This document shows, piece by piece, positions 445-34,377 of a stretch of 34,377 nt of DNA. The notes under the pieces are model-generated. The model searched no databases. It saw only the letters and a program-made list of their open reading frames with translations, and was not told where the DNA came from. The translations under genes were made by a program, and so were the position numbers. The stretch's first letter is position 1. Each line of letters begins with the position of its first letter. The stretch covers positions 1 to 34,377 of the forward strand of contig CAMPAA010000002.1 in NCBI GenBank assembly GCA_946631345.1, written 5' to 3'. This stretch comes from an uncultured Verrucomicrobiota bacterium (GTDB taxonomy: Bacteria > Verrucomicrobiota > Kiritimatiellia > RFP12 > UBA1067).

Positions 445-499
445 GGCGTCGGCGCGTTGGGGCAACGCGGCCTGCTATTTCGCTCCCGACAGCCATTTA

Positions 500-508
500 T
501 GGTATAAT
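500..508 (+). promoter_or_regulatory. extended -10 promoter element TGGTATAAT
   Basis: Exact TGnTATAAT lies 13 nt upstream of the ATG at 522. The same motif recurs upstream of four other genes in the window. Confidence 0.55.
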
Positions 509-521
509 TCACGGCGCAAGG

Positions 522-2069
522 ATGGTAGAGGGCATGACGAAGAACGAGACGAAGGAAAGGCCGGAGGCGCGGGTGGTGCTTGTCGGCACGTACAAAAAAG
601 GTCAGCTCCAGAAATGGCGCGGCTGGTACAACTACCCGATTTCGGAGAAGGACACGGAGGATGCAGCGGGAGGGCGGTCGTCCCCGGCCGCCGCAGACTA
701 TTCGCGAATCAACGAGCTTTGGCTGTTCCTCGGCACGGCGGCGCAGAAGACGTACAGGGCGGAGTTCGTGGGCGTGAAGACGCGCGAGGAGCTGATCCGC
801 GACTACGGGTATCCGGCGAAAGGCAAGGGGCACGCCGAGAGGTATCTGCTCTTCAAGACCGAGTTCAAGTACCGCCACCTAAACGACAATCCCCTCGACT
901 GCGAGAAGGTGATCGTACGCACCAAGGACTTCGCGCGCTCGCCTAAGGTCGCGAAGCAGCTCCGCGAATATCTCGCCTCGCCTGAACGCAGGGATCCCGA
1001 TCTCGCCAACATGCTACCGAGCATCGTCACCCAGCTCCCGCCCGCGAAACTCTGCGTCTGCGAAGCCGCCGTGCAGTTGACTTTTTGGGACATGCCGGAA
1101 CACAAGGACCTGAAACCATCTGTTCCGTTCCCTCCGCCTGAACATCCCAAGTTCACGTTCATCGACCTGTTCGCAGGTATAGGCGGCATTCGCCTTGGCT
1201 ATCAAGCTTGTGGTGGCAAGTGTGTGTTCTCTTCGGAATGGGACAAGGAAGCCGCAAAGACATACTACAGCAACTTTGGAGAGCAGCCTTGGGGTGACAT
1301 TCAACAGATTGATCCTAAGAATATTCCAGACTTCGATGTGCTACTAGCAGGGTTCCCTTGCCAGCCATTTTCAATCATTGGAGACAAAGAAGGTTTCTTG
1401 CATGAAACGCAAGGAACTCTTTTCTTCAACATTGAAAAAATACTGCTCGCAAAGAAGCCAAAGGCATTCATGTTGGAAAACGTGCGCAACTTAACGGCGC
1501 ATGACGGTGGACGAACATTTAAGATTATTATTTCGCATTTGCGAAACGCTGGGTACGATGTTCATTACAAAGTGCTGAATGCATTAGATTATGGTGTGCC
1601 GCAGAAACGCGAACGAATCATAATCTGTGGCTTTAATAGGCCTGTTGATTTTGAGTTTCCTCCGCCAATTCCAAGGGAGAAGCGCACAACGGTTGCTGAT
1701 ATAATTGATAGTGATGCTGAAAACGACCCGACATTAAGGGTACGTCCGGTCATTCGAGCGAGTAGACTTGAACGATTGAAAGACAAGAATTTCCCGAGAC
1801 CCTATATTTCGCATGAGAATGTTGCTGGTGCCATTACGCCGCATAATTACTCGTGCGCATTGCGAGCAGGGGCATCAGCAAATTACATTCTCATAAATGA
1901 CGAGCGTCGCCCCTCTCCTCGTGAGATGTTGCGAATTCAAGGTTTCCCAGACGAGTTCAAAATTGTGGTTAATTACGGTCAGATAAAGCATCAAACGGGT
2001 AATAGTGTCGCCGTTCCTGTAATACGTGCTGTTGCTGAACGTGTAACAGAAAAACTGAAAGAACTGTAA
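522..2069 (+). CDS. DNA (cytosine-5)-methyltransferase with an uncharacterised ~205-aa N-terminal domain (fusion protein, 515 aa)
   Basis: The C-terminal ~305 aa carry the m5C-MTase motifs: I FIDLFAGIGGIRLG, IV GFPCQPFS, VI/V FMLENVRNL, VIII QKRERIIICGF, IX REMLRIQGFPDEF and X GNSVAVPV. The N-terminal part (aa 1-205) has no motif I recognise. An alternative start is ATG 534. Confidence 0.9.
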   Translation: MVEGMTKNETKERPEARVVLVGTYKKGQLQKWRGWYNYPISEKDTEDAAGGRSSPAAADYSRINELWLFLGTAAQKTYRAEFVGVKTREELIRDYGYPAKGKGHAERYLLFKTEFKYRHLNDNPLDCEKVIVRTKDFARSPKVAKQLREYLASPERRDPDLANMLPSIVTQLPPAKLCVCEAAVQLTFWDMPEHKDLKPSVPFPPPEHPKFTFIDLFAGIGGIRLGYQACGGKCVFSSEWDKEAAKTYYSNFGEQPWGDIQQIDPKNIPDFDVLLAGFPCQPFSIIGDKEGFLHETQGTLFFNIEKILLAKKPKAFMLENVRNLTAHDGGRTFKIIISHLRNAGYDVHYKVLNALDYGVPQKRERIIICGFNRPVDFEFPPPIPREKRTTVADIIDSDAENDPTLRVRPVIRASRLERLKDKNFPRPYISHENVAGAITPHNYSCALRAGASANYILINDERRPSPREMLRIQGFPDEFKIVVNYGQIKHQTGNSVAVPVIRAVAERVTEKLKEL

Positions 2070-2085
2070 TAAGGAGAATCAGAGA

Positions 2086-2829
2086 ATGGACAAAACGTTA
2101 AATCCACGACTCAGAGGGGTAGATAAGTACAAGCCCGACTACTTGCTTGGGCAGTTCCCTGCTGGGTTTGCTATGGAACTTGGCAAGGAACTTATTTACC
2201 TATTGGCCACACGGAATCCACCGACGCTTGAAGGCCCAGACTGGGAGCAGATTTTTGCAAGGTGTGTAGGCGCTCAATGGGCACCATCGAATGTCGGACT
2301 TGATGATGTGCAGTTACATCAGATGGCATGGAGTGCCAAGACAGTAAAGAACAAAAACCCATTTACAGTCAAACACATTCGACTTATCAGTGGACGCAAT
2401 TCACTAGATTATTCTTTTGACGTTGAGAACGTTCATACCGAAGACCCTGACAAGTTGGGCGAAATGATTCTGGGGATTTGGAATGCACGCATCACAGATG
2501 TGCGAAAGAAATTTGCCACAACGCGAACCGTTGTGCTAATCAAAGGAGAGGATCTCTCAACGGTTTCCGTTTTTGAAGAGGAGGCTCTAAAGTTCCTGCC
2601 CGAAGAATATGAATGGGAGTGGAATCAAAAGGGAAATCTTGAGGGCTATCTTAAGGATACTGATGTGAAGAAGTTTACTTGGCAACCACATGGTTCTCAG
2701 TTCACCATAATAACTAAAGTGCCTGAGAATCGTTTGAAGCTGCGCATCAAGCGGCCGCCATTGTTGAATCGGGATGAGGTGTTGAAACAGCTTAAGTTTG
2801 ATCCATCTTGGATTGAAATAGTTGAGTAA
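2086..2829 (+). CDS. putative type II restriction endonuclease partner (247 aa)
   Basis: It starts 16 nt downstream of the MTase stop and has a strong AAGGAG Shine-Dalgarno at 2071-2076. It shares the AT-richer composition of the MTase core. A possible PD-(D/E)XK-like arrangement is GLDDV...WSAKTVK. The family is not recognised, so the function rests on context. Confidence 0.55.
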   Translation: MDKTLNPRLRGVDKYKPDYLLGQFPAGFAMELGKELIYLLATRNPPTLEGPDWEQIFARCVGAQWAPSNVGLDDVQLHQMAWSAKTVKNKNPFTVKHIRLISGRNSLDYSFDVENVHTEDPDKLGEMILGIWNARITDVRKKFATTRTVVLIKGEDLSTVSVFEEEALKFLPEEYEWEWNQKGNLEGYLKDTDVKKFTWQPHGSQFTIITKVPENRLKLRIKRPPLLNRDEVLKQLKFDPSWIEIVE

Positions 2830-2840
2830 TGACAACTTTT

Positions 2841-2867
2841 GAAGTCACAAAACGTGACTTCCATTTT
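2841..2867 (+). terminator. hairpin GAAGTCAC-AAAAC-GTGACTTC followed by CATTTT
   Basis: Perfect 8-bp inverted repeat (2841-2848 and 2854-2861) with a 5-nt loop, 12 nt after the nuclease stop codon, followed by a short T run. Confidence 0.5.
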
Positions 2868-2877
2868 GGGTGACAAA

Positions 2878-3384
2878 ATGACGCCACAAAATATAAGCAA
2901 AGTCCAAACCGCCGCCGATGCCGCCGCGCTGTTTCGGGAAATGCACCTGCAACGAAGTTGTCAGGTTCCCCGACGAGCGAAGGGAGGCGCATTCGCATTA
3001 GCGAATGTCGCAATAGGGTGCGCGTTGGCGAAGGGGCAGAGGGAGGAGCGGTTCTATGTGCTGCCGCTTGACGCGAACGGCGGCGTTCTCGCTGAGCCGA
3101 TCACCGTTTCGGTGGGGCATAGCGACGGCACGGTGGGGGTTGATGCCGGAGCCGTGTTCCGGGCGGCGCTGAAGGCGGGCGCGGAGGAGGTCGTCGTGGC
3201 GCACAACCATCCGGGCGGCGACCTGACGCCAAGCAAGGCCGACTTGCAGACGACGGCGAAGCTGCGCGAAGCCGCAAAGCTGCTCGGCGTGAAGCTGCTC
3301 GACCATCTGATTGTATCGTCGGATGGCAAGGGCGGCGTAAGTTTCGTTTCCCTTGCCGAAATCACCGACGGCTGGACGGAATAG
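2878..3384 (+). CDS. RadC-like JAB/MPN domain protein (168 aa, no N-terminal HhH domain)
   Basis: JAMM-type motif VVVAHNHPGGDLTPSKADLQTT, which is the HxHPxG...S..D pattern of the RadC/JAB family. The start is taken at ATG 2878, downstream of the hairpin; the ORF track allows 2839. Confidence 0.8.
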   Translation: MTPQNISKVQTAADAAALFREMHLQRSCQVPRRAKGGAFALANVAIGCALAKGQREERFYVLPLDANGGVLAEPITVSVGHSDGTVGVDAGAVFRAALKAGAEEVVVAHNHPGGDLTPSKADLQTTAKLREAAKLLGVKLLDHLIVSSDGKGGVSFVSLAEITDGWTE

Positions 3385-3401
3385 TCCATCGCAAGGGTCA
3401 G

Positions 3402-3504
3402 GTGACCTTTGGGGAAATGTAGCGTGACCTTTGGGGGAAAGGTAGCGTGACCTTTTGCCCAAGGGCAGACGGATTTTTGCCCGTGGGCTGACGGTCGTTT
3501 GCCC
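3402..3504. repeat. array of five ~22-bp phased units that contains the right copy of the direct repeat (DR-R, 3434-3504)
   Basis: GTGACCTTT starts at 3402, 3424 and 3447. TTTG(G/C)(G/C)(G/C) starts at 3408, 3430, 3454, 3476 and 3498, giving spacings of 22, 24, 22 and 22. Positions 3434-3504 match 375-444 apart from one inserted T. Confidence 0.9.
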
Positions 3505-3546
3505 ATGCCCGTTGCGGCCTTCTGCGCGGCCTTTCGCGGAAAGGGG

Positions 3547-31881: not shown

Positions 31882-33831
31882 ATGAAGACGATAGAGTCGT
31901 TGGCGGTCGCCTGTGTGATTGCACTTGGCGCATGTGCGGCGGTTGCCGATGAGTCTGGCCGGTCTGTTGCCGGGAGGGTTCTGAACTTCGATCAGGGCAC
32001 TTCCGGCTGGAGGCTGAAGCCCAACTATTCGGTGGTCAATGGCGAGGGGATGAATGGCTCTGCGGCACTTGTATATGAGAACCGTGATTCCAAGGTTCCG
32101 TATGTGTTTCCGCACTCCCTGCCGACTTTCGACCTGATGCTCGAGACCGGCGTGTACTACCGCGTCTCTGCGATGATCCGCACGGAGGGTATGGATCCCG
32201 CCAAAGGGCATGGTGCAAGACTGTGCCTTACGGGGGTAAGGACCAACGGAACTTGGACGGGCGAGGCGTACTCAAGTGTCGTCCGTGGGACGAAAGACTG
32301 GACGAAAGTGGAGTTCATGATGAATCCGGTCCGCCCTGATGCCGTCACATGCCGCCTCGCCGTTTACTGTCTGCCCAGATCTGTCGGCAAGGCCTGCTTT
32401 GACGACATACGCATCGAGCCGCTAACGAAGCCGATTGTTGGCGCCATCGTGTCCTCCGCATACCGGAATATGGCAGCGGAAGGTCGTGTCGATTTCCGCG
32501 TAGGGCTGTCTGTGCCAGAGAGATATGCGCTTGACGAGGTGAAAGGCGTGTATTCATACGAGGGCGCGAATGGCACGCGCGATACCGGCGCGGCTGCGGT
32601 GACAGCGCGGGACCGGGCCGAGTTCTCGATTGACTGCGCCAAGATGAAGATGGGCGAAGGAGAGATCGCTTTTGAACTCCTTGCTTCAGGCGGGGTTAAG
32701 CTCGGCGGCGCGGTTATGCGGTTCAGCCGTCCTTCCAGAATGCCAGATCGCCGCGTATGGATTGATAGGCATGGGCGCACCATGGTGAACGGCAGGCCGT
32801 TCTTTCCGCTCGGAATGTACACCGCCAACCTCATCCGCAAGGATACATATGTGAAAGGACCGTTCAACACGGTCATGTCATATACGCCACCAGATGCCGC
32901 TGAGATGGACTTCTTCCACACCAACGGAATAAGGGTCATCTATTCTGTCAAGGACGCCTACGCCGCGATGGGGAGCCGCGCGCCGGAATGCGTGACGACC
33001 GTTGCTGCGGAAAACGCCTATGTGCAGGCGAAGGTAGAGGCGTTCAGACGGCATCCGGCGCTGCTTGCGTGGTATGTGAACGACGAATGTACCTTCGAGA
33101 TGTTTGAATCGCTCAAGGGACGGCAAAGGCTTCTGGAAAGGATCGATCCAGACCATCCGACGTGGGCGGTGTTCTATCAGCTCGAACTTCTGCGCGACAT
33201 GATGCCTACGTTCGATGTTATCGGTACCGATCCATATCCGATTCCAGAGGAGCCGCTTTCCCGCGTGACTGAAGTAACGCGGCGTACCGATGATGCAATG
33301 TTCGGCTTTCGACCGATGTGGCAGGTGCCCCAGGCGTTCGACTGGGGAGTTTTCCGCAAACGGCGCCCAGGCTCACCTGAACCGTACATGCCGTCGGTAG
33401 AGGAGATGCGGTCGATGTCATGGCAGTTTGTCGCCGCTGGTGCGAACGGGCTGGTCTACTACTCGTTCTCCACCATCCAGCATCCAAAAAGGAAAGACGG
33501 AACACCGACTGTTCCCTTCGAGAAGTCATGGGGTGACATTTGCAGGGTCGGCGCTGAACTGAAGAAATATCTGCCTGTGCTGACCGCTGAGCCGGGGCCT
33601 GCGGTAACGGGTGCGCCGATGGCGTGGGGGGTGCGCACATGGCGAAAAGATGGAGAGATATGGCTGCTTCTTGCCAACGCGCAGGACAGGATGGAGACGG
33701 CGGAAGTTGCGTTTCCCGGAGATTTCCAGATGATCAGAACTGAATTTGGCCCGGCAGCGGAAAGGATCAGTGCGCGCGCGGCAAGGGTTACGCTCGCGCC
33801 GAATCAGCCGGCGTTGTACAGGATCAAATGA
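31882..33831 (+). CDS. secreted protein with an N-terminal carbohydrate-binding-module-like domain and a C-terminal TIM-barrel glycosidase-like domain (649 aa)
   Basis: Signal peptide MKTIESLAVACVIALGACAAVA. The N-terminal ~170 aa resemble a CBM4/9-type beta-sandwich (CFDDIRIEP ending). The C-terminal part has clan GH-A-like segments (GRPFFPLGMY, LLAWYVNDE, GTDPYPI). The family is not assignable by eye. Confidence 0.75.
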   Translation: MKTIESLAVACVIALGACAAVADESGRSVAGRVLNFDQGTSGWRLKPNYSVVNGEGMNGSAALVYENRDSKVPYVFPHSLPTFDLMLETGVYYRVSAMIRTEGMDPAKGHGARLCLTGVRTNGTWTGEAYSSVVRGTKDWTKVEFMMNPVRPDAVTCRLAVYCLPRSVGKACFDDIRIEPLTKPIVGAIVSSAYRNMAAEGRVDFRVGLSVPERYALDEVKGVYSYEGANGTRDTGAAAVTARDRAEFSIDCAKMKMGEGEIAFELLASGGVKLGGAVMRFSRPSRMPDRRVWIDRHGRTMVNGRPFFPLGMYTANLIRKDTYVKGPFNTVMSYTPPDAAEMDFFHTNGIRVIYSVKDAYAAMGSRAPECVTTVAAENAYVQAKVEAFRRHPALLAWYVNDECTFEMFESLKGRQRLLERIDPDHPTWAVFYQLELLRDMMPTFDVIGTDPYPIPEEPLSRVTEVTRRTDDAMFGFRPMWQVPQAFDWGVFRKRRPGSPEPYMPSVEEMRSMSWQFVAAGANGLVYYSFSTIQHPKRKDGTPTVPFEKSWGDICRVGAELKKYLPVLTAEPGPAVTGAPMAWGVRTWRKDGEIWLLLANAQDRMETAEVAFPGDFQMIRTEFGPAAERISARAARVTLAPNQPALYRIK

Positions 33832-34143
33832 AGCCCAGGCGCTTGCATCCGTCTTATCTGCGCACATGAGGAATCCGTTGCAGCAGGGTGCATAGACTTC
33901 GACGGTCGGAGGTGCCAATCCTGCCTCCTATGCTTGTCGACTGGTTGGACTGGGAGGGGCATATGTGTTGACGAAGGGGGCGTGGGGGTAGGCAGTGCGC
34001 AATGCAGACTTGCGCAATACATACTTGTCCCCAAGAAGTTCACCGAATCTGGAGTTTACCCATTTTTTGAGGGCGGGATTATTGTCGCAACCCTGCAAGC
34101 AAAGGCGGCGGCATTCCGGCCTTGGGGCAAATCCGTTCCGCCG

Positions 34144-34261
34144 TCTGCCGGAGAGCGTTCTGCCGTGCGGACACCCCAAGATCCGCGTGTGGACACTCCG
34201 ACCCCCGCCTGTGGACAAACGGATTCCGCCTGTGGACAAAATCGTTTCCGCGTGCGGACAG
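34144..34261 (+). repeat. array of five (plus one degenerate) same-orientation ~22-bp repeats with core CCGC(C/G)TG(T/C)GGACA(A/C); DnaA-box-like
   Basis: Core start positions are 34166 TGCGGACAC, 34188 TGTGGACAC, 34210 TGTGGACAA, 34231 TGTGGACAA and 34253 TGCGGACAG. A degenerate in-phase unit is at 34144. Spacings are 22, 22, 22, 21 and 22. TGTGGACAA is the reverse complement of TTGTCCACA. Confidence 0.85.
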
Positions 34262-34273
34262 TCATGAGTTTTG

Positions 34274-34344
34274 GCGTCAATACTCTATAGAATTGACGCA
34301 CAAACACTATAGAATTGACGCAAGAACACTGTTGAAATGACGCC
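34274..34344 (+). repeat. three 22-bp iterons (CTATAGAATTGACGCA x2 plus degenerate CTGTTGAAATGACGCC), preceded by an inverted half-site GCGTCAAT
   Basis: Units start at 34285, 34307 and 34329, exactly 22 bp apart. GCGTCAAT (34274-34281) is the reverse complement of ATTGACGC. Confidence 0.85.
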
Positions 34345-34377
34345 AATTCTTTTTTGAGGCCACAGACCCCGCTCCTT

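Follow-up and report, generated by a model that had tools for sequence, protein, structure and literature searches.

Towards its right-hand end, a 34,377-nt stretch of DNA from an uncultured, gut-type Kiritimatiellia bacterium (Verrucomicrobiota; complete contig CAMPAA010000002.1; the whole stretch is called the window here) carries two arrays of 22-nt phased repeats, and this locus (34131–34377) raises the question of whether it is a replication origin, the end of a transposon, or DNA carried for another purpose. An initial annotation read the repeats as DnaA boxes next to iterons and offered the multi-site end of a Tn7/Mu-like transposon as an alternative. Comparison with near-identical strains shows that the arrays are element-internal sequence and not chromosomal landmarks; they are almost certainly interior DNA of a polymorphic, multi-copy element, which we assign to the IS4 family of insertion sequences (IS) from its ends and its relatives. 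As to their role, we lean slightly towards selected protein-binding arrays that form a passenger control region, a reading that takes in the structural claim.

The last gene of the window (31882–33831, 649 aa, glycoside-hydrolase-like) has 99%-identical homologues on four ENA contigs (L077, L078, L124 and L125), which match the window at 98.8% identity up to position 34048, except for a 55-bp indel (at 33980 relative to L077 and L078), and then diverge completely. At this point the four contigs are empty sites, running from the 9-bp sequence TCACCGAAT directly into ACATTGCATG and on into an AAA_14/DUF4143 ATPase gene, a 309-aa open reading frame (ORF) and a rhamnosidase-type gene (Pfam Bac_rhamnosid6H), and the window runs from TCACCGAAT into CTGGAGTTTACCCATTTTTTGAGGGC. 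The other junction is found on contigs L126 and L127, from other assemblies with the same ATPase gene, where GGGCCAGTCAAAAAATGGGTAAACTCCAG is followed by TCACCGAAT and ACATTGCATG. There, the inserted DNA ends in a perfect reverse complement of CTGGAGTTTACCCATTTTTTGA, the 22-nt sequence with which it begins in the window (nt 65–86 in L126, nt 8–29 in L127). TCACCGAAT is present as a single copy in the four empty sites, with a second copy right after the element end in L126 and L127. Inverted repeats of 22 nt with a 9-bp duplication at both ends are the signature of a DDE-transposon insertion. The element, assigned to the IS4 family, has inserted between the 649-aa gene and the ATPase gene, duplicating the 9 bp of TCACCGAAT.

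The intergenic spot after the 649-aa gene is an insertion hot spot. In relatives that are 77–80% identical (L079 and L121), the Bac_rhamnosid6H gene comes just 42–47 nt after the 649-aa gene homologue; in the window lineage, ∼2.9 kb (leader, ATPase gene and 309-aa ORF) lies between the two. To the left of the insertion site, Tandem Repeats Finder (TRF) located a 15-nt tandem, TGCGCAATRCAKACT twice (TGCGCAATGCAGACT and TGCGCAATACATACT, 33996–34027), with a palindrome, TTGCGCAA; this tandem is conserved in the empty-site strains.

The element also appears to be present more than once in a single sample. Contigs L123 and L127 belong to one Logan assembly (SRR14517526), with L123 carrying the window-type left junction. 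Of the element itself, L123 covers exactly the first 30 nt before it breaks off, and L127 has only the last 29 nt, at its start. In Logan assemblies (k = 31), each 31-mer occurs just once among the contigs (PMC12424806). A unique flank that reaches k − 1 bases into a sequence and breaks off there implies that two or more different flanks lead into that sequence in SRR14517526, and we infer that the element is multi-copy there, as a shared graph node.

The first 20 nt of the inverted repeat occur at more than 114 loci in GTDB genomes (a lower bound; loci L128–L207), in pairs around transposase genes and around miniature inverted-repeat transposable elements (MITEs), with no occurrence in IMG/VR. 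Among the matches listed, nearly all lie in gut or rumen Kiritimatiellae metagenome-assembled genomes (MAGs), with the match very often at a contig end. Complete copies measure 1539–1720 bp between inverted pairs (L129, L204, L170, L141, L150 and L193), and MITEs measure 256–427 bp (L130, L139, L168, L173, L161, L167 and L179), with 8–9 bp target duplications visible at L130, L139 and L168. The full copies contain a single ORF of ∼437 aa with a Pfam DDE_Tnp_1 domain (PF01609), and the YREK signature, Y-(2)-R-(3)-E-(6)-K, is seen in full-length relatives as YLSRWRIEETIRFVK in L170 and YLTRWRIEETIRFVK in L204. The best NCBIfam matches of this transposase are IS4-family models (the top one, transpos_IS4_3, at 42.8 bits against a cut-off of 160), and it reaches none of the curated IS4, IS701 and IS1380 NCBIfam cut-offs; a weak match to the Tn5 transposase was found in the PDB. 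CT ends, 8–9 bp duplications, size and YREK characterise the IS10 and IS50 subgroups of the IS4 family (PMC2266710, Table 1). The window element begins with CTGGAG (5′-CT), has a 22-nt perfect inverted repeat and made a 9-bp duplication, and its full-length relatives encode the DDE transposase with YREK. These features point to a distant member of the IS4 family and, with the transposase far below every NCBIfam cut-off, the family is probably undescribed. The comparison therefore documents an abundant, apparently undescribed IS4-family branch with MITEs in gut and rumen Kiritimatiellae.

Several side observations concern this family. A few repeat matches come from short contigs that had been assigned to Gemmiger, Barnesiella, [Ruminococcus] lactaris, Eggerthellaceae or Faecalimonas, for which mis-binning seems likelier than transfer. 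Many contigs break off 20–140 nt inside members of the IS/MITE family, which is very abundant in gut and rumen Kiritimatiellae MAGs and is thus a main reason why these assemblies are fragmented. Relics of the family are also found. At L154 (+1 to ∼+62) a minimal pair consists of the 20-nt repeat, ∼25 nt, and an inverted copy with one end missing (AAAAATGGGTAC), and at L207, L146 and L176 a solo repeat is followed by ordinary chromosomal genes.

The part of the element that lies within the window comprises its first 329 nt, with the arrays at +96 to +302 from the terminus. The features of the locus are, in order:

33832–34039, plus strand: intergenic leader after the 649-aa gene, common to strains without the element.
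34040–34048: left 9-bp target-site duplication, TCACCGAAT.
34049–34070, plus strand: left terminal inverted repeat, CTGGAGTTTACCCATTTTTTGA, 22 nt, of the element assigned to the IS4 family.
34071–34143, plus strand: subterminal arm of the transposase-distal type, matching the distal arm of L193.
∼34136–34157, plus strand: degenerate in-phase unit, with TTCCGCC kept and TGYGGACA missing.
34160–34268, plus strand: array 1, five co-oriented units of 21–22 nt with variable spacers; 14-nt cores, (T/C)CCGC(C/G)TG(T/C)GGACA, at 34160–34173, 34182–34195, 34204–34217, 34225–34238 and 34247–34260.
34268–34305: imperfect palindrome from an inverted-repeat search, 17-nt arms 34268–34284 and 34289–34305 around a 4-nt centre.
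34285–34350, plus strand: array 2, three 22-nt direct repeats starting at 34285, 34307 and 34329.
34306–34335, minus strand (leftward), within array 2: sigma-70-like promoter match, TCAACA-18-TATAGT, a consensus match only.
34351–34377, plus strand: tail to the contig end, with the element running on past the window.

On re-checking, the positions given in the initial annotation for the five cores, the two exact copies of TGTGGACAA, the inverted half-site and the three 22-bp iterons all proved correct, and the degenerate in-phase unit that it described is present as a weak one. Its statement that the genes point towards the site was broadly right, in that all long plausible ORFs are on the plus strand, among them the glycoside-hydrolase, LamG and AraC-type genes.

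With these boundaries in place, the reading of the locus as the chromosomal oriC of the Kiritimatiellae host has next to no probability. A cluster of DnaA-box-like 9-mers beside an AT-richer segment would suit an origin, but an oriC is expected to be single-copy and conserved in position, and everything from 34049 onward is missing from L077, L078, L124 and L125, strains ∼99% identical in the adjacent shared DNA. The cluster also lies inside the inverted-repeat and target-duplication boundaries of a dispersed family that is multi-copy in one sample, and only two of its five units are real TTGTCCACA boxes. GC skew is positive over all 34 kb, and the cumulative skew proposed as a check is still rising at the contig end, with one side of the site visible and no switch. 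We regard a chromosomal oriC as effectively refuted by the empty sites, the element boundaries, the multi-copy status and the GC skew together, which keeps the 34131–34377 locus from being recorded as a replication origin.

The second suggestion, a transposon end, was broadly right insofar as the arrays do belong to an element end, and wrong in naming a Tn7/Mu-like one, the element being of IS4 type to judge from its ends and its relatives. The terminus is CTGGAG with a 9-bp duplication, not TGT or TG with 5 bp. Nor do the sites run from the terminus at both ends: the first unit starts at least 96 nt inside, and the 86 nt available for the right end lack TGYGGACA. Full-length relatives encode a single DDE_Tnp_1 protein, not a TnsB/MuA-type (rve) transposase with an AAA+ partner, and autonomous family copies lack the arrays. 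The termini, the length of the duplication, the class of transposase and the position of the sites all speak against a Tn7/Mu-like end, which we reject. We also rejected an integrase att site with arm-type sites, as there is no integrase C-terminus and the inverted repeat and duplication explain the junction.

The sequence around the arrays was compared with the other family members. The arm leading to the arrays matches that of L193 (80% over 64 nt from the inverted repeat, BLAST E 1e-8; local alignment z = 6.6 against shuffles), and in some full copies the arm beyond the transposase stop codon is homologous to window positions 34071 to ∼34113. Full copies reach this stop codon after ∼105 nt. 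No transposase homology was found in the window, its 329 nt of the element included, or in the 86 nt of the right end. The 86-nt right arm is assignable to neither arm type. As the window tail and these 86 nt do not overlap, the element is at least 415 bp long; this copy is either autonomous, with a minus-strand transposase beyond 34377, or a MITE- or cassette-like derivative.

The arrays themselves were found in this copy only. The 87 other family ends contain no TGYGGACA arrays, no CCGC-TG-GGA core and no ATTGACGC, and exact array searches returned nothing from GTDB genomes (40-mer), IMG/VR (36-mer and palindrome pattern) or JGI metagenomes (26-mer). Three phased TGTGGACA boxes, sought with a degenerate pattern, matched 72 genome and 21 viral loci, none of them related (actinomycete DnaA-box clusters, plasmid iterons, coding repeats and Bacteroidota tandem arrays), and with two CCGCNTGNGGACA units as the pattern the matches were confined to coding repeats and arrays of no relation. 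BLAST of 34049–34377 against plasmids and phages produced chance matches only. By these comparisons, the arrays are specific to this copy or its subfamily. We treat the region as non-coding, since its six-frame peptides match no protein among 5.8 billion. No ORF starts within 34049–34377, and a minus-strand frame that is open across the arrays (34376 to 34060, 106 codons) has no Pfam match. No tRNA or Rfam family was detected in the last 1.4 kb of the window, and a scan of the last 880 nt gave only the leftward promoter match and no terminator.

Full-length and MITE copies without arrays imply that the family transposase does not need them, which bears on the possibility that the arrays are accessory transposition sites, bound by a variant transposase or a host factor and tuning transpososome assembly at this end. 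Their closeness to a transposon terminus and their 22-nt phasing, a property of Tn7 and Mu ends, are in keeping with such a role. Host factors are known at IS4-family ends, DnaA being a candidate as at the IS50 outside end, and the distal arms of other copies have a conserved (A/G)(A/T)GTGG motif near +80. Against this, neither autonomous nor MITE copies have needed arrays of this kind to transpose, TGYGGACA is missing from the known 86 nt at the other end, no site abuts the terminus, and both the CTG termini and the 9-bp duplication differ from the TGT or TG and 5 bp of those systems. We consider accessory sites improbable.

The repeat pattern of array 1 is beyond chance. TGYGGACA occurs seven times on the plus strand of the whole window, five of them in array 1, and not at all on the minus strand, against an expectation of 1.3 per strand from a first-order Markov model; in 600 simulated strands, not a single pair 21–23 nt apart arose. 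The TGCGGACA/TGTGGACA (TGYGGACA) cores start at 34166, 34188, 34210, 34231 and 34253, with spacings of 22, 22, 21 and 22 nt, and TGTGGACAA is exact at 34210 and 34231. Allowing up to one mismatch, CCGCSTGYGGACA is found in array 1 only, in four of its five units.

A closer look at array 1 reveals that its units have been conserved unevenly. Mean pairwise identity is 0.79 across the 14-nt core and 0.21, the random level, across the 8-nt spacers (permutation p 0.002), with C..TG.GGACA as the invariant columns. This contrast is expected for selected binding sites and not for a young neutral tandem duplication, and a conserved core between randomised spacers suggests selected protein-binding sites on one face of the helix. 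The core is also part-palindromic, TCCGC-NN-GCGGA being perfect in the last unit and reaching 3–4 of 5 in three others. Compared with a DnaA box, the array shows no conservation in the columns that correspond to T1 and T2, the invariant A7 is replaced by G in two of the five units, and 5–6 conserved bases of the array fall outside the box. Measured against TTGTCCACA, there are two exact boxes, one with one mismatch and two with two mismatches. As DnaA boxes, then, only two of the five units are credible, and the part-palindromic core is better suited to a dimeric DNA-binding protein than to DnaA.

Array 2 differs in composition, its patch having a GC content of 39% against 61% for array 1. Its units read CTATAGAATTGACGCA(C/A)(A/G)AACA twice and then CTGTTGAAATGACGCCAATTCT (TRF score 83, 86% matches), with unit identities of 20/22, 14/22 and 14/22. 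In all there are one inverted and three direct copies of a 16–22-nt unit, which contains TATAGAAT and TTGACG hexamers. One inverted unit and the first direct copy make up the palindrome, the inner core of which is GCGTCAAT-N10-ATTGACGC, with the inverted half-site GCGTCAAT at 34274–34281 and ATTGACGC at 34292–34299. The 10-mer TTTTTTGAGG occurs twice, once at the inner margin of the left inverted repeat (34063–34072) and once directly after array 2 (34350–34359); as it is a T-run, its recurrence may be due to chance.

Both arrays could instead be neutral, functionless tandem duplications that arose by slippage in a non-autonomous, MITE-like element. The family yields many MITEs, in the range of 256–427 bp, and the first two units of array 2 are 20/22 identical, as for a recent duplication. 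Other odd members have tandem repeats of their own: L135 (reverse strand) carries three 22-nt direct repeats of CACAAAGTGGGGTGTTTGTGTA at +288 to +351, framed by the inverted repeat CCCCTATAGGGATATA and TTATATCCCCTAAGG, at a similar distance from the terminus and with the contig end ∼40 nt later, and L201 carries 3.5 repeats of 26–28 nt at +141 to +300. The L135 repeats are unrelated in sequence to the window arrays. Neutral decay does not, however, predict the difference between spacers and core in array 1, and the inverted copy that makes the palindrome is not a slippage product, so that we judge this explanation unlikely, although with something in its favour.

Array 2 looks like an operator with iterons. 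Iteron origins have at least three direct repeats of 17–22 nt at a phase of ∼22 nt, as found in array 2 (three) and array 1 (five), and an inverted partial iteron as operator, as found in the palindrome, whose arms can be extended to 17 nt. On this basis the element could carry origin-like cargo, with Rep iterons and an operator in array 2, either DnaA boxes or a further set of iterons or centromere sites in array 1, and a rep/par gene just past the contig end; it would then be a plasmid-like replicon captured between IS ends. The 22-nt phasing, the direct repeats with their inverted half-site, the AT-rich patch beside a GC-rich array and the two exact TTGTCCACA boxes are all compatible with this, and a Moraxella contig (L008) has five 22-nt iterons containing TGTGGACA in front of a Rep_3 initiator gene. 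In the other direction, the 329 nt show no gene and no ORF start, every complete family copy seen is at most 1.72 kb and free of cargo, the inverted half-site is upstream of the iterons and not between iterons and gene, and the profile of array 1 is unlike the DnaA box at T1, T2 and position 7. An origin captured as cargo is quite unlikely in our estimation.

We return to the preferred reading, selected binding sites carried as a passenger control region. In this reading, this copy or its subfamily would carry sequence-specific protein-binding sites as passenger or regulatory DNA. Array 1 would present five sites on one helix face through its 22-nt phasing, each with the core TCCGC-NN-GYGGA-CA, to a dimeric protein rather than DnaA. 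Array 2 would have the layout of an autoregulated operator/iteron control region in an AT-rich patch, and probably governs transcription into the element interior or another DNA transaction within it. Several points weigh against this. No regulated gene, binding protein or transposase is visible in the 329 nt, and the arrays are known from one sequence only. A simple scan gave no convincing rightward promoter, its sole match being leftward. The unrelated internal tandem repeats of L135 and L201 imply that arrays may simply arise easily in these elements, and the two exact high-GC DnaA boxes make some DnaA binding possible. If the arrays are functional binding-site clusters, the transposon would be spreading regulatory or origin-like DNA rather than genes. 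A stronger form, a transposable cassette of gut Kiritimatiellae that moves helically phased iteron/operator sites between IS4-type ends, seems doubtful to us; it would amount to a mobile origin-like, centromere-like or regulator-titrating module, and its transposition would seed new clusters of sites bound by a replication, partition or regulatory protein.

The gene to the right of the insertion is of interest in its own right. The ATPase (L077, 2681–4057; also on L078, L124, L126, L127, L242 and L243) matches the PADLOC candidate defence family PDC-S01 with an E of 8e-134. Together with its leader, which starts with (T)CACCGAA, it follows three different upstream sequences, for the most part on contigs that are very short, and gene and leader together appear to form a cassette that is itself mobile or variable. 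The IS insertion is exactly at the left edge of this cassette, 119 nt before the start codon, and an insertion at that distance upstream of a candidate anti-phage gene may change the gene's expression in the window strain. The idea that the array is an origin recognised by the neighbouring AAA+ ATPase was rejected, because the empty-site strains have the ATPase without the arrays.

At the other end of the window, a direct repeat of ∼72 nt, GGGGAAAGGTAGCGTGACCTTTGCCCAAGGGCAGACGGATTTTTGCCCGTGGGCTGACGGTCGTTTGCCC, at 373–446 and 3426–3505 flanks an island (447–3425) with a GC content of 46–47% against 62–65% around it. The repeat in turn consists of phased sub-repeats, 22–23 nt long, that have a palindrome, GCCC-NN-GGGC. 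With att-like repeats at its borders and no integrase inside, the island resembles an inserted restriction-modification island; it contains the following genes, the second of which is possibly the restriction enzyme:

522–2069: type II C5 DNA methyltransferase.
2086–2829: 247-aa ORF, unassigned.
2839–3384: RadC-like JAB protein.

How the window element relates to known systems can be described for four of them. Tn7-like and Mu-like ends carry several co-oriented sites of ∼22 nt near the transposon end, and co-oriented sites of this length are found near one end of the window element. They differ in their termini, duplication length and family transposase class; moreover, the window sites start away from the terminus, are not seen in the 86 nt of the right end and do not occur in autonomous relatives.

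Theta origins and operators of the Rep_3 type are represented by F ori2, pSC101, pPS10 and R6K, and an inverted partial copy alongside direct repeats is the logic of the autoregulated initiator/repressor regions of F, pSC101 and pPS10. The window shares with them the 22-nt phased direct repeats, the inverted partial copy as an operator-like palindrome and the AT-rich surroundings. Unlike these origins, the window arrays lie inside an IS arm without a visible initiator gene in the 329 nt, the order of palindrome and iterons with respect to any gene downstream is unusual, and array 1 is not a typical DnaA-box set.

In MITEs and mobile insertion cassettes that derive from IS4-family elements, IS-type inverted repeats and a target duplication surround non-transposase DNA that is mobilised in trans. 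The window element likewise has IS-type ends and a duplication, and its family has many MITEs, although the known ones are without these arrays. MIC231, derived from IS231, is a named mobile insertion cassette (PMC2266710). Set against the IS10 and IS50 subgroups (PMC2266710), the window element stands apart in its Kiritimatiellae host and in the ∼250 nt of phased repeat arrays in its distal arm, which are no described IS10/IS50 feature. With these subgroups it has in common the 5′-CT ends and 8–9 bp duplications and, through its family, full copies of 1.5–1.7 kb and a single, unframeshifted DDE transposase with YREK that weakly matches the Tn5 transposase.

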